A DNA stretch of 64,000 nucleotides from Gammaproteobacteria bacterium (GTDB lineage Bacteria > Pseudomonadota > Gammaproteobacteria > UBA4575). The position numbers and the translations under genes were made by a program. Location: the NCBI GenBank assembly GCA_965243395.1, contig CBDEUS010000002.1, positions 800,001-864,000 on the forward strand, written 5' to 3'. Below the pieces are notes generated by a model. It saw only the letters and a program-made list of their open reading frames with translations, made no database searches and was not told the DNA's origin. Shown here piece by piece: positions 12,597 to 27,400 of the stretch (position 1 is the first letter of the stretch; each line of letters starts with the position of its first letter).

Positions 12597-14549
12597 TCAA
12601 TGACCCAGGGCCATATCAATGTAGCCCGTAGGGCATACATCTGCACAAATATGACAACCAATACACTTGTTGTAATCGGTGTCTACATAACGACCTGTTG
12701 TTGACTCATCTTTCTTGACTCTGAAAACAGCGTCTTGTGGGCAGTACACAACGCAGTTATCGCATTCAAAGCACATGCCGCAACTCATGCAACGATTGGC
12801 TTCTTCTACAGCTTGTTCTTCAGTGAAATTTTTCATGCGTTCTTCAAAGTGACCTAATACTTGTTCTGCATCTGGGCCATGTTCTTCACGTAAACCGCGT
12901 GGCGTGAAGGGGAAGTGTCCTAGGAATAATTCATCATAAGAAATGATTTCTTGTTCTGAACGATCTTCATAGTTATGTACTGAGAATTTAGATTCATCTG
13001 TGCCACGTGTTTCGCCAACGCTATAGTCGTCAGGTTCAAGACCAGACTCACGCAATTTTTCTAAAAGATCAAAATGATGCACATCCACTTTAGGGCGTTT
13101 TCTGATTTCGGTATCTTTAAAATAATAATCGATACTTTCAGCTGCAATGGATGCTTGTCCGATAGCAGTGGTTAATAAGTGAGGGCGAATGATGTCGCCA
13201 CAAACAAAATGGCCTTCGCGATCTGGTACTGCATAAAATTTATCTGCATCGATTAACCCACGGCCATTATCAAATTCTTCCAAGCCATCCAGGTCACCTC
13301 CTTGACCAATCGCAGATACGATAAGATCACATTCAATTTCAAATTCTGTACCTTCAACTGGTACGGGTCGGTTATCTTCCATTTTGCATTCCGCCATACG
13401 TATTGCGGTTGCACGGCCATCCTCTCCAGTCACAACTTTGACAGGCATTACACCATCTTTAATTTTTACCCCTTCGCGTTGTGCATCATGAACTTCGTGT
13501 TCCGCTGCAGTCATTTCTGATTTAGGGAACAATGAAGTAAGTGTTACATCTGCACCTTCACGAGCCGCGGCATAAGCCGCATCATGTGCTACATAGCCAC
13601 CTATCACATGTTCAGGGGCTTCTTCTTTATTAAGTTTTTCAATTTTTCCAAGTCGGCGTGCAACGGAAACGACGTCGATTGAAGTATCACCACCGCCCAC
13701 ACAGACAACACGGTCTGCGGTAACTTGTAAACGACCTGTATTGAAGGCTTCTAAAAACTTCACCCCCGAAACACAGTTTGGCGCATCGCCGCCCTCGACC
13801 GGCAAGCCGCGACCAGATTGACAACCTAATGCCCACAGAACTGCATCAAATTCTTTTTCGATATCTTCGACCGATACATCTTTACCAACACGGGTATTCA
13901 TACGTGTTTCGATGTTGCCCATGTCTAGAATGCGTTGTATTTCATGGTTTAGAAAATCACGCGGGGTGCGATAACCAGGTATGCCATAACGGAACATGCC
14001 GCCCAGTTCTTCATGATCATCGAAAATAACGCTGGCATGGCCCATACGACGTAATTGGTAGGCAGCAGCAAGTCCTGCTGGTCCACCGCCGATAATGGCT
14101 ATGGTTTTACCGGATAATTGTTCAGGAGCCTCAAATTTGAAACCTTGCTCATAAGCCGTGTCACCAATATATTGCTCTACAGCATTAATACCTACAAAGT
14201 CTTCTACATGGTTGCGATTACAGCCATCCTCGCAAGGTGCGGGACAAACTCGACCCATCATAGATGGAAAAGGGTTTGCATCCGTTGAACGCAAGAACGC
14301 ATACTCTTGCATACTCATGCCTTCTACTTGTGGTTTTTCTATACCACGTACAATTTGCAACCAGCCACGAATATCTTCTCCAGAAGGGCAGCTACCCTGG
14401 CATGGAGGTGTGCGATGTACATAAGTAGGGCATTTATGTGAATGATCAGCTTCAAAGATTTTTTCGCCAAAATTTCCCCACTCGTAATCTCCGTCTTCAA
14501 ATTTTCTAAACGTTAGTTTGTGGGTTATTTGTTCCTTAGGCGTCGCCAT
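12597..14549 (-). CDS. dsrL: Iron-sulfur flavoprotein DsrL (operonic copy, no YRR motif)
   Basis: TPPCQGSCP, GRVCPAPCEDGCNR, GGGPAG, GGGDTS, TSLFP, C-terminal CMSCGMCFECDNC and CIGCHICADVCP. Confidence 0.96.
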   Translation of the reverse strand: MATPKEQITHKLTFRKFEDGDYEWGNFGEKIFEADHSHKCPTYVHRTPPCQGSCPSGEDIRGWLQIVRGIEKPQVEGMSMQEYAFLRSTDANPFPSMMGRVCPAPCEDGCNRNHVEDFVGINAVEQYIGDTAYEQGFKFEAPEQLSGKTIAIIGGGPAGLAAAYQLRRMGHASVIFDDHEELGGMFRYGIPGYRTPRDFLNHEIQRILDMGNIETRMNTRVGKDVSVEDIEKEFDAVLWALGCQSGRGLPVEGGDAPNCVSGVKFLEAFNTGRLQVTADRVVCVGGGDTSIDVVSVARRLGKIEKLNKEEAPEHVIGGYVAHDAAYAAAREGADVTLTSLFPKSEMTAAEHEVHDAQREGVKIKDGVMPVKVVTGEDGRATAIRMAECKMEDNRPVPVEGTEFEIECDLIVSAIGQGGDLDGLEEFDNGRGLIDADKFYAVPDREGHFVCGDIIRPHLLTTAIGQASIAAESIDYYFKDTEIRKRPKVDVHHFDLLEKLRESGLEPDDYSVGETRGTDESKFSVHNYEDRSEQEIISYDELFLGHFPFTPRGLREEHGPDAEQVLGHFEERMKNFTEEQAVEEANRCMSCGMCFECDNCVVYCPQDAVFRVKKDESTTGRYVDTDYNKCIGCHICADVCPTGYIDMALGH

Positions 14550-19689: not shown

Positions 19690-20949
19690 TTAACCAGCTG
19701 CAGCTTGTTCAGCTTTGTTGTTAAACCACTTCTCAGCTTCCTCGTCCCAACTATCTGAACGGAAATATGAGCTTTGGCGCGGTTCATTGATCATATTTGG
19801 ATCAACTTCAACACCAACACCTTCTAAGAAGTTGACCAAACCAATGCGTTCGATCATCTCTCCACAACGTTCATGCTCAAGACCATTTTCAGCCCAGAAA
19901 TCAATAGTTTCTTCAGCCAACTCTACTAGGCTCTCGTAATCTTCTTCGGTCTCAAGTTTCTTAAACGGAACAATTACAGTTCCCATTAAGTCGCCAATTT
20001 TAAGTGTACGCTTGCCACCAATTAATATTGTTACGCCTTGATCGTCACCTGGAGATAATGCTTTCACCATGACATTTAAACAGTGCATGCAGCGCACACA
20101 GTCTTGGTTATTTACTTCTAAGGTATCATCATCTTTAAGAGCGAGGGCTTGAGTGGGGCAGCGAGTGATTACATTATCAATTACATATTGGCGTCCTTTG
20201 CGTTTAACGAATTTTTTAACTTCGTCTTGGTCAACCTTCATGTCATCACGCCAAGTGCCAATAATGGAAAAATCCGAACGTTCGATTGAGTTCATGCAAT
20301 CATTTGGACAGCCTGAAACTTTAAATTTAAATTTGTATGGTAAAGCAGGACGATGAACATCATCTGTGAAATTATTTAGAAGTGTGCGATGAATTTTCAT
20401 TTCATCTGCATTGGACATTTCACAACGTGCAGCGCCTACACATGACATGCCTGTACGTACGCATGGTCCAGCACCACCTAAGTCCCATCCATAATCATTA
20501 ATTTCATCAAAAAAGTGTTGTGTGTTTTCAGTTGTTGCACCAATGAACATGATGTTTCCGGTTTGACCATGGAAAGTAACAAGACCTGAGCCATGTTTTT
20601 CCCAACTATCACCAAGCTGTCGTAGCATGTCTGTGGTGTAATAGTTACCTGCAGGTGGTTGTACTCGTAAAGTATGAAATTCCTTTGATTCAGGAAATGC
20701 CGCACCTACTTCAGAAAATCGTGGAATGATTCCACTACCGTAACCAAATACAGAAACCGTACCGCCTTTCCAATAACCTTTACGTGTTTCGTAAGAGTGT
20801 TCCAGTTGACCTAATAAAGAATTTGCTACGCCTTGAATTCTTTCGTCTTGATGTTGATCGCGTAAACGTTTAATGCCAGAAACAAAACTAGGCCAAGGAC
20901 CCGTTTCTAGCTCATCGAGCATGGGAGTTGGATGATGCTTGTCGGCCAT
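19690..20949 (-). CDS. dsrA: Dissimilatory sulfite reductase alpha subunit (oxidative type)
   Basis: GPWPSFV, CVGAARC and SGCPNDC siroheme motifs, CVRCMHC. Confidence 0.99.
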   Translation of the reverse strand: MADKHHPTPMLDELETGPWPSFVSGIKRLRDQHQDERIQGVANSLLGQLEHSYETRKGYWKGGTVSVFGYGSGIIPRFSEVGAAFPESKEFHTLRVQPPAGNYYTTDMLRQLGDSWEKHGSGLVTFHGQTGNIMFIGATTENTQHFFDEINDYGWDLGGAGPCVRTGMSCVGAARCEMSNADEMKIHRTLLNNFTDDVHRPALPYKFKFKVSGCPNDCMNSIERSDFSIIGTWRDDMKVDQDEVKKFVKRKGRQYVIDNVITRCPTQALALKDDDTLEVNNQDCVRCMHCLNVMVKALSPGDDQGVTILIGGKRTLKIGDLMGTVIVPFKKLETEEDYESLVELAEETIDFWAENGLEHERCGEMIERIGLVNFLEGVGVEVDPNMINEPRQSSYFRSDSWDEEAEKWFNNKAEQAAAG

Positions 20950-21267
20950 GGTGGAATCTCCTAATAACTTTAGTCGAGAATGTAAAATTGCACTTTAAAT
21001 AAGTGGACTAATTGTACCGAAACGGCACTGGCATAATTGCCGTAACCGTCATGGAAACACATGTTTAGCAGTCTAGAAGTAGGGCTAAATAGGCAAAATC
21101 CCCTCCATGGGGTGCCGACTTAAATACAACTTATCCCATGAGAGATAGAGTTTATTAGGGCGAGGAGATAAGTGAAATTCAGTGTACATAATGTAGTCTA
21201 AATACTTATTCTATAACCAATTTATTTACATCGGCTTATTCTTCAAAACTATTGTAATTCTTTAACT
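20950..21267. promoter_or_regulatory. Divergent control region between dsrA and the tauD-cas6 operon
   Basis: 318-bp non-coding gap with inverted repeats ACGGCA-N10-TGCCGT (21022-21043), GGCA..CCCC-TCCAT-GGGG-TGCC (about 21092-21116) and TATCCCA-TG-AGAGATA (21132-21147). Confidence 0.7.
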
Positions 21268-22185
21268 ATGAAGCCATGTTTTCTCGAATCTGAAAGTGAT
21301 TATCGCCAATGGCGGGCAGAGAAGCTTAGTGGATATCCTGACTCCATCGAGCCGCTCATTGTAGATATCGAGGATCCCTATCATATTTCGCAGCAAGAGA
21401 GGACGAAATTAGTCCAAATATGCAAAAAAACCAATATGGTTTTCTATCGGATACTAAATCTCAAAACTGAGGAAAAGGGAATTGTTAAAACTATTGCTGC
21501 ACAAGTTGGTTTAATGAACATGGATGGAAATTTGTGTGCGGATCAGAATCGAATTTCTTCGATTCAAGTTCTAGATGATAAGTTGAGTGGCAACTATATT
21601 CCGTATACTAACAAATCACTTAATTGGCATACCGATGGATATTACAATCAAGATCAACAACGCATTCGTTCTTTTTTGATGCATTGTGTACGACCTGCAC
21701 ACTCAGGTGGAATCAATTCTTATTTAGATCCTGAAATCTTTTATATTTTGTTGCGTGATCTAAATCCGAACTATATTGAGACATTGCAGAAAGAGGATGT
21801 GATGTCCATCCCGGCAAATATTGATAAAAATAAAGTAATTAGAAAAGAAAAGCAGGGACCAGTATTTTTATTTGATAAAAAATCACAATCGCTCTATCTA
21901 CGTTATACCGCAAGAGCGCGCAATATTATTTGGAAAGATAATGTTGAAACGAAAAAGGTAAGAGATGTGATATTAGATATATTAAATAATAACGATTATC
22001 AGTTTCAATATCGTTTGCAGAGTGGTGAAGGCGTTATTTGTAATAACGTATTGCACAACCGAACTTCATTTAAAGACCAACCTAACTCTACACGTTTACT
22101 ATACCGTGCACGTTTTTATGACCGCGTTGCGGCTACTGTACAAGAACATGACTTAAGGGAGCAGATTGATGTTGTGGCTAAGTGA
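21268..22185 (+). CDS. TauD/TfdA-family Fe(II)/2-oxoglutarate dioxygenase
   Basis: LNWHTDGYY (HxD), HCVRPAHSGG, NNVLHNRTSF, RLLYRARFYDR. Confidence 0.88.
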   Translation: MKPCFLESESDYRQWRAEKLSGYPDSIEPLIVDIEDPYHISQQERTKLVQICKKTNMVFYRILNLKTEEKGIVKTIAAQVGLMNMDGNLCADQNRISSIQVLDDKLSGNYIPYTNKSLNWHTDGYYNQDQQRIRSFLMHCVRPAHSGGINSYLDPEIFYILLRDLNPNYIETLQKEDVMSIPANIDKNKVIRKEKQGPVFLFDKKSQSLYLRYTARARNIIWKDNVETKKVRDVILDILNNNDYQFQYRLQSGEGVICNNVLHNRTSFKDQPNSTRLLYRARFYDRVAATVQEHDLREQIDVVAK

Positions 22186-22369
22186 AGTTTTGTTGCAACA
22201 TCATGAATTGCAATCTTTTGAGGAGCTTAAGTTAAAGTTGGGTGAGCGAGCCCAGCAAGGTGAAATGTTTTTTAGAATGGACGTGCGTCCACCCTTTCAA
22301 GATACACCCGAAAATTGGGAAGATATATTAGAAGCCGTGTTTACAGCGGCGAACAAATCGTCTGACTAA
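22169..22369 (+). CDS. Small conserved sulfur-oxidiser protein
   Basis: MLWLSEVLLQHHELQSFEEL...FFRMDVRPPFQDTPENWED; overlaps the end of the TauD-like gene; GGAG RBS. Confidence 0.8.
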   Translation: MLWLSEVLLQHHELQSFEELKLKLGERAQQGEMFFRMDVRPPFQDTPENWEDILEAVFTAANKSSD

Positions 22370-22378
22370 AAAATTAAC

Positions 22379-23068
22379 ATGTATTGGCAAGATAAAGAAG
22401 ATAAGAAAGAACAGTTTATCGTTCCAGACGACATCATTGATGTGTCATTTAAAGTGCAGTGTAAACAACTACCCTTGGATCATGCTTATGCGCTTTCGCA
22501 AGCCATTCAAAATGAATTACCCTGGATACATGATGAACCTCAGGCGGGGATCCACTTAATACATGGCGCAGAGTCTGGCAATGGCTGGATTCGTCCACAA
22601 GAGCCTGATGCAATTCTAAATTTATCTCGACGTACACGTTTTATGTTAAGGCTTCCAAAACATCGTGTTGAAGAAGCTCATCAGTTATTAAATGTGCCCA
22701 TAAATGTGGGAGGTTTTGAGGTGATTTTGAGCAATCCTCAGTCAAAAAAGCTTTCTGCACTGACTACAATATTCGCACGTCATATCATTACAGAAAGTAT
22801 TGAAGATGAAGATGAATTTTTAAATCAAGCGGCCCTGTTATTAAAGAATCAGGGAATACGGGTAAAGAAAATGATGAGTGGTTTAGCGCATGTGCTACGC
22901 ATGCCGGAGCAAAATTTATCAACCCGTAGCCTGATGATTGATGGGCTTGATATTGAAGAATCAATATTTTTGCAACAGCATGGTTTGGGGGAAGGCAGGA
23001 AAATAGGTTGTGGCTTATTTTTACCACATAAGGGGATTGACGCAGTGGGAGAAGCTCAGCAAAAATAA
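22379..23068 (+). CDS. cas6: Orphan Cas6/Cmx6-like RAMP protein (type I-MYXAN-like), no CRISPR context
   Basis: LPLDHAYALSQAI N-terminal motif, GIHLIHG, LRLP, C-terminal SIFLQQHGLGEGRKIGCGLFLPH Gly-rich loop (GhGxxxxxGhG). Confidence 0.85.
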   Translation: MYWQDKEDKKEQFIVPDDIIDVSFKVQCKQLPLDHAYALSQAIQNELPWIHDEPQAGIHLIHGAESGNGWIRPQEPDAILNLSRRTRFMLRLPKHRVEEAHQLLNVPINVGGFEVILSNPQSKKLSALTTIFARHIITESIEDEDEFLNQAALLLKNQGIRVKKMMSGLAHVLRMPEQNLSTRSLMIDGLDIEESIFLQQHGLGEGRKIGCGLFLPHKGIDAVGEAQQK

Positions 23069-23133
23069 TTACTTTGAAAGTAATTTAATAATAATTATCA
23101 AAACTGTTATTTATATTTTGTGAGGAGTTAGAT

Positions 23134-23475
23134 ATGGCAATGAATGTAAATGGCAAAGAAATAGAAACCACTGATTCTGGGTTTCTAGTGAGCCTAGAAG
23201 ACTGGAATAAAGAGGTGGCAGAGGAAATTGCTAAAGACGAGGGCGTTGAATTAACAGATAAACATTGGGATGTAATCAATTATTTACGGGATGAGTTTGT
23301 AAATAATAATGGCAATCTGCCTAATACCCGCAATATGGTTAAGGCTATGGCCAAAGCTTGGGGAGAGAAAAAAATTGATGCCAAAGTTTTATATGACTTA
23401 TTTCCAGGCAATCCAAGTAAACAAGCAGGCCGTATTGGAGGATTACCTGAGAGTAGGCGCAAAGGTGGTTATTAA
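23134..23475 (+). CDS. DsrC/TusE-fold protein with no cysteines (RspA-type)
   Basis: IETTDSGFL...DW...LTDKHWDVINYLR...LYDLFPGNPSKQAGRIGGLPESRRKGGY. Confidence 0.9.
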   Translation: MAMNVNGKEIETTDSGFLVSLEDWNKEVAEEIAKDEGVELTDKHWDVINYLRDEFVNNNGNLPNTRNMVKAMAKAWGEKKIDAKVLYDLFPGNPSKQAGRIGGLPESRRKGGY

Positions 23476-23574
23476 CTTCTTTGTATAATTCCACCCAATA
23501 CGGAATACAGACAGGCTTCAGGGGTCTGATTACATTAGTTATAACTATTTTCAGTGTTACTGAGCGAGGTTAAA

Positions 23575-23778
23575 GTGAGTTCAAAACAGGAAAAGATTAA
23601 AAAATTACTCGAAATGCAAAAAAAGTTTATTGAGTTTGAGCAGAATGGTGAATTGACTGCACAAGGTTATTGGTTTCCTGAAGATGGCTCTGAGCTTGAT
23701 GGCTACAAAGAAGAATATATGAAGCTTGCTATGGAAGTGGTAGATGACGCGCATGAAGAAGTGGGCTCGAAACGATAA
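23575..23778 (+). CDS. Small conserved acidic protein of sulfur oxidisers
   Basis: LEMQKKFIEFE...LAMEVVDDAHEEVGSKR; GTG 23575 after GAGG RBS. Confidence 0.8.
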   Translation: MSSKQEKIKKLLEMQKKFIEFEQNGELTAQGYWFPEDGSELDGYKEEYMKLAMEVVDDAHEEVGSKR

Positions 23779-23787
23779 CCAAAATTC

Positions 23788-23839
23788 ATAATGTAATAAA
23801 AAAAAGGCCGCGAATGCGGCCTTTTTTTTATTACATTAT
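23788..23839. terminator. Bidirectional intrinsic terminator
   Basis: Perfect 24-bp arms ATAATGTAATAAAAAAAAGGCCGC-GAAT-GCGGCCTTTTTTTTATTACATTAT between convergent genes. Confidence 0.93.
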
Positions 23840-24507
23840 TAAACTTCACTCCACATGCGTACCAAGTTTACATATACATTATCGATTCGTTTTGTATCTT
23901 CTGATTCAGGATCTTTACGCAACATTTTTTCTCTCGTTTTGTTGAGTTGATAAAGTAGCTCACGTTGTTCATTGCTGCGAATTAAACTTTGCACCCAGGT
24001 AACGGCTACCAAGCGCTCACCTTTGGTTATCGGTGTCACTTCATGATGAGTAGTAGCAGGATAGAGGACGGCGTCACCTGCAGGATATTTAATAGTTTGT
24101 TCACCATAGGGTGATCGTATGCGTAGTTCACCCCCTTCATATTCATCAGGAGCATTTAAGAAAATCGTTACTGCAATATCGGAACGGTAGTAATTGTCTT
24201 TGCCCATAATCGGGTCATCTAGATGTTCGCCATATTCCATTCCTATCTGGTAACGAGCATAAAATGGTGTGGCAACTCGATGTGGTAAAGCGGCACGTTG
24301 ATATTCTGGATGGCGAACTAAGTTATTCATGACAATTTGATTTAACTCGGCAATAATATTTTCATTAACCAGTTCTTCATTGTTTTTAACAGTTTTTGCA
24401 ATGTCGCCTGCTGATAGTTTTCCATGATGAAAATCTGCATTTGAGAGTAAAGCTTGAACTTGTTTGAGTTCCTTATCTCCAAGCACATGTTTAATTTGTA
24501 CTAACAT
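23839..24507 (-). CDS. PKHD-type Fe(II)/2OG hydroxylase (PiuC/YbiX-like)
   Basis: SAGDIAKTVKNN, YGEHLDD, RSDIAVTIFL, YEGGEL, HEVTPITKGERLVAVTWVQS. Confidence 0.92.
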   Translation of the reverse strand: MLVQIKHVLGDKELKQVQALLSNADFHHGKLSAGDIAKTVKNNEELVNENIIAELNQIVMNNLVRHPEYQRAALPHRVATPFYARYQIGMEYGEHLDDPIMGKDNYYRSDIAVTIFLNAPDEYEGGELRIRSPYGEQTIKYPAGDAVLYPATTHHEVTPITKGERLVAVTWVQSLIRSNEQRELLYQLNKTREKMLRKDPESEDTKRIDNVYVNLVRMWSEV

Positions 24508-24560: not shown

Positions 24561-24887
24561 GTGATGATACTTAAAGTTACAATCGATGAGAAAACATTTC
24601 CGCTTGAGGTGGATGAAGAGATGATGCAGCGTGCGGATAACGCATTTAAAAAAATGGATGACGACATGAGTCAAGGTTGGCAGATGAGTAGAGTGTGGGT
24701 TGAAAACCCATCTGATTTACAACGCTGTCAAATCGCTGCAGATAAAATGCTAACGGCCATACAGCAAGAGAATAAGGCTACGGTTGGTCTCATGGCGGCT
24801 TATATTATGCGTAAACTACCGGGAATCACTGCTATTGATATTGATACCTCGGGCGATATGACTTTAACGGAAGTCGTGATGAATTAG
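24561..24887 (+). CDS. Conserved hypothetical protein, sulfur-oxidiser associated
   Basis: KKMDDDMSQGWQMSRVWVENP...RCQIAADKMLTA...DTSGDM. Confidence 0.75.
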   Translation: MMILKVTIDEKTFPLEVDEEMMQRADNAFKKMDDDMSQGWQMSRVWVENPSDLQRCQIAADKMLTAIQQENKATVGLMAAYIMRKLPGITAIDIDTSGDMTLTEVVMN

Positions 24888-25086
24888 GGATGTTCAGCTT
24901 TACTAGTAACTCAGTAAATTCCTCTGAAACAACACAAAGTAAAACAGAATCAATACTTTTATTAGTGTTGTTTCCATCATCATAGCTCGCATTTTTAAGC
25001 ATAATCAGCAATACTTATCCCCCTAAAAATATGATTATTTAATTCCGGCAATGGCATGTCGGAATACCTTATCTCTGGAGGTACTT

Positions 25087-27015
25087 ATGGCGGAAGAGAG
25101 ACTTACGTTTCGACGCTACAAGGATGGTGATCATGTAACCACGCAGTGGAACAAGGACGTTGTTCAAAACGGACTTTCTGAAATTTGCCCGGCCTATATT
25201 CATCGCACTCCACCTTGTCAGGCTAGTTGTCCTTCTGGCCATGATATACGCGGATGGTTATCTATTGTTCGTGGCATCGATAAACCAAAAGGCGATATGA
25301 CGTGGGAAGAATATGCTTTTAGACGCATGACTATGTCGAATCCGTTTCCTTCTGTAATGGGTAGAGTGTGTCCCGCTCCTTGCGAAGATGGGTGTAATCG
25401 TAATGAGGTGGAAGAAGCGGTTGGAATTAATTCAGTTGAGCAATACGTTGGAGATTGGGCACTCGAACATAATTTAACTTTTCCAGAACCTGGACCAGAC
25501 AGTGGCAAAAAAGTTGCCATTGTTGGTGGTGGATGCGCCGGACTTACTGCGGCCTTCTTTTTAAGACAAAAAGGTCATGCATGCACATTATTTGATGAGT
25601 ATGACCAGCTTGGTGGCATGATGGTGTTTGGTATACCAGGTTATCGTACACCGCGTTCTGTTTTGGAAGGCGAGATTCAAAGAATTATTGATATGGGTGT
25701 AGAGGTCAAACTCAATACTCGTGTGGGTACTGATGTTTCGGTTGACGAACTTGAGCGAGATTATGACGCAATCTTTTGGGGGATTGGCGCAGTAGCTGGA
25801 AAAAGAATTCCTATTCCAGGTGGTGATGCGCCGAATGTTGTAGATGGAATGTCATATCTTCGAGCTTTCAATGAAGACCGATTGAAGTATTTAAATGGAC
25901 GCATTCTGGTGATTGGTGCCGGTGATACTGCAATGGATGTGCTAGCGGTTGCGCGACGTATTGGAAATATAAATAAAGTTACTAAAAAAGATCGTCCTGA
26001 AAATGTAATTTTAGGATACACCGTGCACGATGTTGCATCAGTGGCTAAACGTAAAGGTGCAGATGTTTGGGTAGTGTACAGACGTCCTATTTCTGAAGCG
26101 CCTGCAACTAAACATGAACTTGATGCCGTTATACGCGAGGGTGTGGAGATTCATGACGGTTTATCCCCTGTAGAAGTTATTCTGGATGAGAAAGGTCGGG
26201 CCAAAGCATTGCGCGTGGTGCCCGTTGAGCTTGTTGATGGTGAATTAAAAACTAAAGATGGTGAAGAGTTTGATATCGAATGTAGCCTGATAGTGAGCGC
26301 AACCGGTCAAACAGGTGATTACCGCGGTATTGAAGAGTTTGATAATGGATGGGGCTTAATGAATGCCGACAAGGTCTATCGAGTTGAAGGGAAGCCAGGG
26401 CATTTTGTTGCAGGAGATGCGATTAATCCGCATTTGTTAACTACTGCAATTGGGCAAGCGTCTATCGCTGCTGAAAGTATGCACCATTATTTAATGGACG
26501 AGGAAATTCCAGCCAGGCCTAAAATTGATACTCATCATTTTAAGTTGTTAGATGAATTACGAGAGCGTGAATTAGAGCCTGAACATTTTGAAACTCAAGA
26601 AGCATGGGGCACTGATTCTGCAAAATTTGCAGTGCATAATTATGAAGATCGCTCTGCTACAGAGATTGCAACTCATGACCAGTTGCACATGGCGTATTTT
26701 GAAGAAGTGCCAATGAATCGTAGAGATGAAGCGAACATTACTGCGGAAGAAGTGCTAAATAATTTTCAAGAACGTTTCTCTGTATTAGAAGAACAAAAAG
26801 CAATTGATGAAGCAGAGCGTTGCATGAGCTGTGGTATGTGTTTTGAATGTGACAACTGCGTTGTCTATTGTCCGGAAGATGCAATCTTCAGAGTAAAAAA
26901 GGAACAGTATGCAGTGGGGCGTTATGTCGATACCGATTATGACAAATGTGTAGGTTGTCACATCTGTGCAGATGTATGTCCAAGCGGTTATATCAAAATG
27001 GGATTAACGTATTAA
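25087..27015 (+). CDS. dsrL: Second DsrL paralog with YRR motif
   Basis: Collinear with 12597-14549 (LTFRR, TPPCQASCP, CMSCGMCFECDNC, CVGCHICADVCP) but GAGDTA and VYRRP; start ATG 25087 after GGAGG. Confidence 0.93.
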   Translation: MAEERLTFRRYKDGDHVTTQWNKDVVQNGLSEICPAYIHRTPPCQASCPSGHDIRGWLSIVRGIDKPKGDMTWEEYAFRRMTMSNPFPSVMGRVCPAPCEDGCNRNEVEEAVGINSVEQYVGDWALEHNLTFPEPGPDSGKKVAIVGGGCAGLTAAFFLRQKGHACTLFDEYDQLGGMMVFGIPGYRTPRSVLEGEIQRIIDMGVEVKLNTRVGTDVSVDELERDYDAIFWGIGAVAGKRIPIPGGDAPNVVDGMSYLRAFNEDRLKYLNGRILVIGAGDTAMDVLAVARRIGNINKVTKKDRPENVILGYTVHDVASVAKRKGADVWVVYRRPISEAPATKHELDAVIREGVEIHDGLSPVEVILDEKGRAKALRVVPVELVDGELKTKDGEEFDIECSLIVSATGQTGDYRGIEEFDNGWGLMNADKVYRVEGKPGHFVAGDAINPHLLTTAIGQASIAAESMHHYLMDEEIPARPKIDTHHFKLLDELRERELEPEHFETQEAWGTDSAKFAVHNYEDRSATEIATHDQLHMAYFEEVPMNRRDEANITAEEVLNNFQERFSVLEEQKAIDEAERCMSCGMCFECDNCVVYCPEDAIFRVKKEQYAVGRYVDTDYDKCVGCHICADVCPSGYIKMGLTY

Positions 27016-27061: not shown

Positions 27062-27400
27062 CTATACTGCGCTTCCGAAGCCTTTGTCTTGTGCACCAGC
27101 AGGTGCATGCAGACCCGCTACTCTACAGCCTTGCGCAACTGGACCACCTGGGAATAGATCATATAAATATTTCATGCCGCCTTTGTAGTGGAATTTTTCT
27201 TCCAATGCATCATGCAATTCACGCATATTAATTTGCTTAATTTCATGGCGCGAATAAAATTCTTGTAAAGCATGGATTACGCCAAAATGATCTTCAGTCA
27301 GAACCAGACCTTCTTCTGTAGCTACATCAGTTGCATTCTCGTCCGTCCAATCTTCCGTAATGAACATCCGGGCATAATCATTTTTAGTAGTTACTGTCAT
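27062..27400 (-). CDS. DsrC-family protein lacking the terminal Cys (RspA-type)
   Basis: DWT...EEGLVLTEDHF...YLYDLFPGGPVAQGCRVAGLHAPAGAQDKGFGSAV. Confidence 0.88.
   Translation of the reverse strand: MTVTTKNDYARMFITEDWTDENATDVATEEGLVLTEDHFGVIHALQEFYSRHEIKQINMRELHDALEEKFHYKGGMKYLYDLFPGGPVAQGCRVAGLHAPAGAQDKGFGSAV

Follow-up and report, generated by a model that had tools for sequence, protein, structure and literature searches.

A Cas6-family protein encoded beside a DsrC-like protein and divergently from dsrA in Gammaproteobacteria: a candidate regulatory pair outside CRISPR

Closest described systems and the locus

The closest described relatives of the protein considered here are the Cas6/Cmx6 proteins of type I-MYXAN/I-B CRISPR systems, represented by 8fcj_B and by Cmx6 from plasmid pSYLB of Synechocystis sp. 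PCC 6714, the latter being encoded in a cas3-cmx8-cas7-cas5-cas1-cas2 operon with an array. In a stretch of 64,000 nucleotides from contig CBDEUS010000002.1 (assembly GCA_965243395.1), hereafter referred to as the window, we find a protein of the same Pfam and NCBIfam families, of similar size and with the same double RNA recognition motif RAMP fold in its model, that has neither the operon nor the array. Its gene belongs to a cluster of five tightly packed open reading frames (ORFs) on the + strand (21268-23778), divergent from dsrA, and is followed by the gene for a Cys-free DsrC-like protein. In further contrast to the CRISPR-linked Cmx6 proteins, its gene shows linkage to dsrAB and is passed down with the host lineage, and a 12-residue insert of the cyanobacterial proteins is missing from it. 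The recruitment of a Cas6 away from immunity into the oxidative Dsr system, where it is paired with a DsrC-like protein ending in RKGGY, is strongly supported, and we consider it very probable that the Cas6-like protein is independent of CRISPR and dedicated to dsr.

The partner belongs to the DsrC/TusE/RspA proteins, among which, according to an excerpt of PMC8477390, RspA comprises the DsrC-family members without both C-terminal cysteines. The protein of the window has the DsrC fold in its model and is Cys-free like RspA, whereas its flexible arm, which in DsrC and TusE has a Cys-bearing end, terminates in an invariant RKGGY; in every genome tested, this RKGGY type accompanies the Cas6-like gene. 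RspA is said to have been proposed as regulatory by Venceslau et al. in 2014, and DsrC of A. vinosum reportedly binds DNA near the dsrA promoter, as described by Grimm et al. in 2010.

The third point of comparison is dsrQ, a tauD-like gene that lies divergent from dsrA in many aerobic sulfur oxidizers and for which a sulfonate-cleaving role has been guessed (excerpts of PMC7596348 and PMC9371685); it is traced to Lenk et al. 2012, as cited in an excerpt of PMC7596348. What these excerpts cover is dsrQ and its guessed role; neighboring Cas6, DsrC-like or small genes do not appear in them. In the window, dsrQ heads the cluster, encodes a TauD-family protein and is transcribed away from dsrA. 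Its metal triad (H121-x-D123...H263) and the arginines R265, R276 and R280 are conserved in at least 95% of 69 orthologs. The gene dsrQ is thus already known, and the conserved non-CRISPR setting of a known Cas6 fold and family appears to be new: no link of Cas6 with dsr is mentioned in the main-text excerpts examined, which came from PMC7596348, PMC9371685, PMC8477390, PMC10952691, PMC5728499, PMC7540712, PMC8616872, PMC5965381, PMC3368242 and 10.1101/172254.

A Cas6-family protein in a genome without a CRISPR system

Profile searches placed the Cas6-like protein above the cut-offs of PF09559 (197.3 bits, cut-off 26.7, E 3.1e-58) and of TIGR02807 cas6_cmx6 (132.4 bits, cut-off 98.85), in accordance with its database name, type I-MYXAN Cas6/Cmx6. 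The AlphaFold 2 (AF2) model, obtained from an alignment (A1) of 48 diverse relatives that comprised the window protein and P0061 together with 46 drawn from the remaining 149 listed representatives, had a mean predicted local distance difference test (pLDDT) value of 91.7. Its best match in Foldseek was 8fcj_B, the Cas6 of the Cascade of a type I-B CRISPR-associated transposon (template modeling [TM] score 0.76/0.80), and the matches listed, to rank 44, were all Cas6, Cse3/Cas6e or Cascade entries. The same 8fcj_B was the single significant sequence/profile match in the PDB (E 3e-25). As judged from the model, the 229-residue protein is firmly a true member of the Cas6 family with a double ferredoxin-like (RAMP) fold.

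The first-pass annotation of the window had described this protein as intact, with a DH motif and a Gly loop. Both LPLDHAYAL and the Gly-rich loop GLGEGRKIGCGLF are found in its sequence, and the loop glycines G202, G204, G210 and G212 show little or no variation. For comparison, we used three CRISPR-linked Cmx6 proteins from cyanobacterial plasmids (pSYLB, pCENA543a and Gloeothece). The first two are encoded in full cas6-cas3-cmx8-cas7-cas5-cas1 operons, with cas2 in pSYLB too, and the Gloeothece stretch contains cas6-cas3-cas8a1-DevR-cas5. The residues D34-H35, R91, R134 and R207, together with GxGxxRxxGCGxF, are common to the window protein and all three. H35, which precedes helix 36-46 of the model, is conserved in no less than 90% of clade members and also in the three CRISPR-linked proteins, and the residue aligned with it in 8fcj_B is Asn; we take this position to be the expected site of the catalytic His, by analogy with other Cas6 enzymes. 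In contrast, W3 in an N-terminal MxW extension, W49, E144, G168, R183, an SGNGWxRP insert and a PHK tail (PHK217-218) are specific to the clade and absent from CRISPR-linked Cmx6, although the SGNGWxRP insert is also missing from three beta-type sequences.

The window protein is 25-28% identical to the Cmx6 proteins of the cyanobacterial plasmids. In a maximum-likelihood tree from a quick search, rooted for drawing only, 41 dsr-type and representative rows split from four plasmid rows with a Shimodaira-Hasegawa-like approximate likelihood ratio test (SH-aLRT) value of 98. The rows were the window protein, 20 from the 80 loci described below, six from distant loci, 14 representatives drawn from the 150 listed among the 947 representative clusters of the family, and the four plasmid proteins. 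Judging from this tree, the dsr-linked proteins appear to form a clade separate from CRISPR-linked Cmx6. The viral contigs searched contained no relative of the protein. Elsewhere in the family, a Cas6/Cmx6 gene was seen on plasmid pGMOR1 of Gloeobacter morelensis (locus L110, 8974-9765) with no cas neighbors in the stretch fetched; next to it are genes for 3'-phosphoadenosine 5'-phosphosulfate (PAPS)-reductase-family proteins and a cupin, with DNA methyltransferases further on, and it may represent a different non-CRISPR use of the family.

The genome that contains the window is 100% complete (2.58 Mb in 2 contigs). The lack of an array or cas genes, reported in the first-pass annotation for the window, extends to all of it: Cas1, Cas2, Cas5 and DevR/Cas7 gave no match in a search whose genes did not include Cas8, and the Cas3 core gave sub-threshold helicase matches only (43 and 29 bits versus a cut-off of 102). 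PF09559 occurs once. Repeat scans of the genome at k=18 and k=13 revealed no CRISPR array; their sole hit, at 81400-81950 on the minus strand of contig C1, was a long Ala/Lys/Arg-rich coding repeat. In a control, the same kind of scan at k=14 detected the nine-repeat array of the Synechocystis plasmid, and the k=14 scan of 86 related loci found no array. Repeat hits in two of these loci (L049 and L106) were rejected as arrays, both being coding repeats. At 17300-17600 of L049, about 7 kb from the cluster, there is a Gly/Trp/Pro/Tyr-rich coding repeat that presumably resembles sulfur-globule proteins.

We considered whether the gene could nevertheless be an ordinary Cas6 that serves an array elsewhere, or the remnant of a decaying CRISPR-Cas system near dsr. 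Its NCBI-type annotation as type I-MYXAN Cas6/Cmx6 agrees with this, as does the presence of Cas1 somewhere in relatives that carry the gene. Among 41 genomes (the window's own and 40 relatives), the Cas6-like gene and dsrA are both present in 27 and both lacking in 14; Cas1, however, occurs in 6 of the 27 relatives with the Cas6-like gene versus 4 of the 14 without it, so that the gene does not track Cas1. Furthermore, the reading frame is intact in 27/27 matches, the homologs share 67-77% identity within genus and family, a high value for a cas gene, the position is conserved in 80 further loci, and the clade stands apart from CRISPR-linked Cmx6 in the quick tree. For this genome, which is without an array or any of the cas genes searched, we can exclude both the ordinary CRISPR role and the decaying remnant, and we regard this explanation as extremely improbable.

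Linkage to dsrA and composition of the locus

Among 401 genomes sampled evenly across the phylum, five contain PF09559, all of the window's class and all with dsrA. These five were the only genomes of that class with dsrA in the sample, and 42 dsrA-bearing genomes of other classes were without PF09559 (the samples behind the PF09559 and dsrA counts were taken as identical, with the same genome handles in both). A pattern scan of 185,579 species genomes revealed at least 529 loci that encode a relative of the Cas6-like protein. Gene neighborhoods were analyzed in the best 80 of these at least 529 loci, which bear labels such as Thiogranum, Sulfuricaulis, Thiohalobacter, Thiothrix, Thiomargarita, Parabeggiatoa and Muproteobacteria, and for each gene only loci with sufficiently long flanks were counted. 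The synteny with dsr is conserved: in 62 of 64 loci, dsrA is the divergent upstream neighbor of the Cas6-like gene, which is adjoined by the DsrC-like gene in 69 of 71 (on the same strand in 62). Upstream of the Cas6-like gene, the TauD-like gene was found in 67/72 loci and the gene for the 66-aa protein in 73/78. The gene for the 67-aa protein was near it in 52/69 loci, that for a YbiX-like protein in 50/61 and that for a 108-aa protein in 42/60. The clade appears to be distinct and vertically kept in the class, Gammaproteobacteria in the GTDB sense.

The same is seen at closer range. The dsrA homologs of the window's genus or family are 89-94% identical to the window dsrA and are likewise divergent from the cluster, and, among 23 relatives of the window's family, all five genes are present in 22 loci, whereas the remaining locus ends at a contig end. 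In one genome (G101) the cluster is dispersed on a single contig with all parts retained, dsrA lying at 0.59 Mb, the Cas6-like gene at 1.20 Mb and a lone DsrC-like gene at 1.52 Mb. There, the Cas6-like gene is divergent from a run resembling rnc (RNase III)-era-recO-pdxJ (locus L114, 9974-10645 and 10694-12240), with a thioredoxin-like gene on its other side; this arrangement is a single case.

The first-pass annotation had treated the five genes as one unit. In three distant loci (32-36% identity), dsrA is divergent from the Cas6-like and DsrC-like genes, and the TauD-like gene lies downstream. In six dsr loci of other classes (L119-L124), dsrA is divergent from a TauD-like gene in 6/6, and a detectable gene for the 66-aa protein follows in 4/6, whereas Cas6, DsrC-like and 67-aa genes occur in 0/6. 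Because dsrQ is shifted in the distant loci and occurs without the Cas6 pair in other classes, the cluster is better read as two modules, namely, dsrQ with the 66-aa gene, and the Cas6-like gene with the DsrC-like gene, usually accompanied by the 67-aa gene. The second module is confined to the window's class. Since the 66-aa gene follows dsrQ in four of the six loci that lack Cas6, its product is probably a partner of DsrQ.

As proposed in the first-pass annotation, the DsrC-like protein is a Cys-free DsrC paralog: it contains no cysteine among its 113 residues and hence lacks the sulfur-carrier Cys of DsrC and TusE. Its AF2 model (pLDDT 87.9) has as best structural match DsrC of A. vinosum (1yx3, TM 0.86, 41% identity). 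The residues R109, K110, G111, G112 and Y113 are invariant in 26 sequences, namely, the window protein and those of 25 of the 50 loci in which both proteins have the expected lengths (alignments A3 and A4). A profile of the RKGGY type found matches extending to its final position in each of the four Cas6-bearing genomes examined (G101, G318, G338 and G360), and in G317, which is without the Cas6-like gene, there was no match of this extent.

The coordinates of the cluster and its surroundings are given in Table 1. The remaining features of the first-pass description were confirmed, including the five co-oriented ORFs, the spacer shared with dsrA, and the closing terminator, whose stem GGCCGC-GAAT-GCGGCC is flanked by A8 and T8 (stem and T8 at about 23805-23828).

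Table 1. Features of the dsrA-Cas6 region, in window coordinates
Feature	Position	Strand	Remarks
dsrA	19690-20949	-	Heads the oxidative dsr operon; divergent neighbor of the cluster; from the ORF list
dsrA-dsrQ spacer	20950-21267		318 bp, common to dsrA and the cluster
Palindrome TATCCC-ATGA-GAGATA	21132-21147	no strand	Candidate operator in the dsrA-dsrQ spacer
dsrQ, TauD-family Fe(II)/2-oxoglutarate dioxygenase	21268-22185	+	305 aa; Pfam TauD, E 3.4e-16
66-aa acidic protein	22169-22369	+	Overlaps the end of dsrQ; alternative start 22166 gives 67 aa
Cas6/Cmx6-family RAMP protein	22379-23068	+	229 aa; PF09559, TIGR02807
Cys-free DsrC-fold protein, RspA type	23134-23475	+	113 aa; PF04358, E 1.7e-35; C-terminal RKGGY
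Element CCC-AATAC-GG-AATA-CAGACAG	23494-23514	+	Strand-specific; between the DsrC-like and 67-aa genes
67-aa acidic protein	23575-23778	+	Closes the unit; GTG start behind a GAGG ribosome site
Terminator-like hairpin	23790-23837	no strand	Between the convergent 67-aa and YbiX-like genes
YbiX-like PKHD hydroxylase	23839-24507	-	Often-linked neighbor; family matches
108-aa protein	24561-24887	+	Often-linked neighbor
Second DsrL-like flavoprotein	25051-27015	+	Often-linked neighbor; family matches
One-Cys DsrC/TusE-like protein	27062-27400	-	Often-linked neighbor; family matches

The two small proteins of the cluster are acidic (isoelectric points [pI] of 4.6 and 4.7), and neither has a Pfam or NCBIfam match. 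The 67-aa protein has the conserved core MQKKFI...AH.EKGS; an alternative start of its gene at 23554 would give 74 instead of 67 aa. The Protein Atlas clusters of the 66-aa protein carry the automatic label "sulfur relay protein DsrC" without a Pfam family, those of the 108-aa protein are labeled "hypothetical", and both labels are uninformative. The window contains two DsrL-like genes, one inside the dsr operon (12597-14549) and the other outside it. The latter shares some 56% identity with the operon type of relatives and lies behind the 108-aa gene, which is conserved and belongs to no family, and next to the genes for the YbiX-like hydroxylase and the one-Cys DsrC/TusE-like protein.

Conserved elements, possible function and significance

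Two conserved elements accompany the genes. The first is a palindrome in the dsrA-dsrQ spacer with the consensus TAYCYC-N4-GRGRTA, that is, TATCCC-N4-GGGATA with Y/R play at two positions. It was found, with at most one mismatch per half, in 46 of 66 spacers, and the majority of the 78 hits in 1.31 Mb of locus sequence come from it. The copy in the window is the only such site at the locus, and a loose version of the pattern gave scattered weak matches elsewhere in the genome. In G101, with its dispersed cluster, the palindrome is located upstream of dsrA, and it was not found in the six loci of other classes. Among 35 distinct sites, full pairing is possible only on the + strand in 10, only on the - strand in 11, on both in 9 and on neither in 5. 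A hairpin formed on one strand was rejected as a reading of the palindrome because these departures from pairing are symmetric between the strands, which fits a DNA operator better. The spacer contains two further blocks conserved in the family (21068-21115), GCAGTCTAGAAGTAG and AATCCCCTCCATGGGGTGC, each unique in the genome; the AATCCCCTCCATGGGGTGC block includes a CCCC/GGGG inverted repeat.

The second element, of the form CYC-N4/5-GRG(A)ATA followed by YRG, is located 20-90 nt after the DsrC-like gene. It was found on the + strand in 37/51 spacers and as its reverse complement in 10/51, as compared with 0-6 of 38-69 control spacers on the + strand and 2-11 on the reverse complement. The exact motif peaks at two places only, with 34 + and 39 - occurrences in the dsrA-dsrQ spacer and 21 + versus 1 - after the DsrC-like gene (bins +750 and +1000 from the Cas6 start). 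Its GGAATACAGACAG block occurs once exactly in the genome and at two further places with one mismatch, and the conserved 13-19-nt blocks of the elements have no copies in the genome away from the locus beyond one-mismatch chance matches. In outline, the element is a G+C stem of 3 bp closed by a tetraloop and followed by a conserved tail, as illustrated by CCC-ATTA-GGG-A-ATACAGAC in locus L031. The CRISPR repeat of pSYLB, GCC-GTAA-GGC-G-TTGAGCAC, has a similar outline of stem, 4-nt loop and tail, but the likeness is one of form only, as the sequences differ and the element is present as a single copy and not as an array.

The reading that we favor is that a domesticated Cas6, paired with the DsrC-like protein, regulates the dsr genes through these elements; taken as a whole, mechanism included, we give it a probability of roughly 0.4. 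The pair would recognize two CYC-N4-GRGATA elements, one in the dsrA-dsrQ spacer and the other on the sense strand after the DsrC-like gene, and would in this way determine dsrA levels and those of its own operon. The Cas6-like half would provide sequence-specific recognition of nucleic acid through the conserved DH motif and Gly-rich loop, and the DsrC-like half would make this recognition responsive to oxygen or to the state of the Dsr system. A regulatory role that involves nucleic acid is favored because the Cas6 determinants are conserved and the elements travel with the genes. The binder of the elements, RNA or DNA as the target, cleavage and the signal sensed are all matters that we infer. 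Regarded separately, binding of nucleic acid at the two elements by the Cas6-like protein is a tentative proposal, and cleavage of RNA by it would be unlikely.

Several results weigh against this regulatory reading. The genomes are related, so that the co-occurrence counts are patterns and not independent events. The palindrome fits an operator for a dimeric factor, possibly one encoded elsewhere, and no copy of it was found in L115 and three beta-type loci, although the Cas6 pair is present in each of these. The stem of the second element is only 2-3 bp in the window's family, and 2 bp in the window itself. In a folding test that covered the core of the dsrA-dsrQ spacer on both strands and two spacers inside the unit, the spacers folded no better than shuffles (z from -0.88 to +1.28), and a search of Rfam returned only sub-threshold, terminator-like matches. 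The dsr-linked clade, with a median core net charge of -3 (range, -11 to +8), a median pI of 6.25 and a pI above 8 in only 11/81, is markedly less basic than its CRISPR-linked relatives, of which only three, from cyanobacteria, were compared (net charge +2 to +9). Finally, a complex of the Cas6-like and DsrC-like proteins was predicted from our own alignments with a score of 0.54 (best of three controls, 0.00), with agreement in at least 54% of contacts between runs and a partner pLDDT of at least 83. The predictor's mark is reached by 58/80 solved complexes and 2/110 mismatched pairs; scores of 0.60 or less, however, include only 7 of the 80 solved complexes and both passing mismatches, so that this score lies in a band where passes are more often wrong, unless the pairing is likely beforehand.

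These results divide the fate of two proposals made in the first-pass annotation. Recruitment away from immunity has held, as there is no array and the gene tracks dsrA, whereas the binding or processing of sulfur-gene transcripts is still a candidate function, with the conserved DH motif and Gly-rich loop in its favor and, against it, the less basic clade, spacers that fold no better than shuffles and a palindrome that behaves like a DNA site. The suggested partnership with the DsrC-fold protein is supported by adjacency and co-occurrence, to which the complex predictor adds a weak pass.

In a bolder version of the regulatory reading, to which we attach little credence, the pair would be a CRISPR-independent riboregulator of a core energy pathway that binds, and perhaps cuts, CYC-N4-GRG hairpins with an AUA tail. 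Hairpins in the dsrA-dsrQ leader region and after the partner gene would then set the stability or translation of sulfur-oxidation transcripts, and the RKGGY arm would serve as a readout of DsrAB state or of oxygen by way of the adjacent dioxygenases. If true, it would mark the first domestication of a Cas6 for the control of host genes.

A role at the level of proteins only is close behind the regulatory reading, given the acidic shift and the DNA-like main palindrome, although on its own we consider it rather unlikely. The Cas6 fold would here do no work on nucleic acid and would instead bind or chaperone the DsrC-like protein, whose RKGGY arm might mimic the DsrC arm at DsrAB or be a substrate of the DsrQ and YbiX-like oxygenases; the outcome would be an oxygen-dependent switch on the Dsr system. 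Such an adaptor would be consistent with the shift of the clade to an acidic or neutral charge, with its specific residues and the SGNGWxRP and PHK segments that CRISPR-linked Cmx6 lacks, with an invariant C-terminal arm on a DsrC fold, with the two oxygenase genes, showing intact metal triads or family matches, that flank the pair, and with the weak pass for direct contact between the two proteins. However, the DH motif, the three arginines and the whole Gly-rich loop are conserved over deep divergence, and a mere scaffold would have little reason to preserve them. In addition, dsrQ is present without the Cas6 pair in genomes of other classes, and this oxygenase therefore does not need the pair; the arm, moreover, is not known to be modified.

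A further alternative, which by analogy would join a TusE-like protein to an RNA-binding fold acting on tRNA or rRNA, with the oxygenase as the modifier, is in our view very improbable. TusE has a role in 2-thiouridine formation, and the DsrC-like protein does match the TusE model, at 93.6 bits and under the cut-off of 191; the divergent rnc-era-recO genes in G101 would also agree with a helper in RNA modification. The DsrC-like protein, however, is unable to relay sulfur because it lacks Cys, so strict a tie to dsrA would be unexpected for a function related to translation, and the rnc neighborhood is a single case.

For genome annotation, the finding means that the label "type I-MYXAN Cas6/Cmx6" is no ground for assigning a CRISPR system to these genomes. 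For CRISPR biology, it would provide a clear case of a Cas6 endoribonuclease fold that has been kept across a bacterial class, down to 32% identity, without an array or the cas genes searched, and it raises the question of the role of a RAMP protein on its own. For sulfur microbiology, it adds an unnamed conserved gene pair to the oxidative Dsr system of many gammaproteobacterial sulfur oxidizers. In the excerpts of the papers examined, the treatment of dsr control is limited to dsrR, dsrS and additional promoters in Allochromatium; with the pair come two small genes and two conserved cis-elements, which offer handles on the control of dsr expression.

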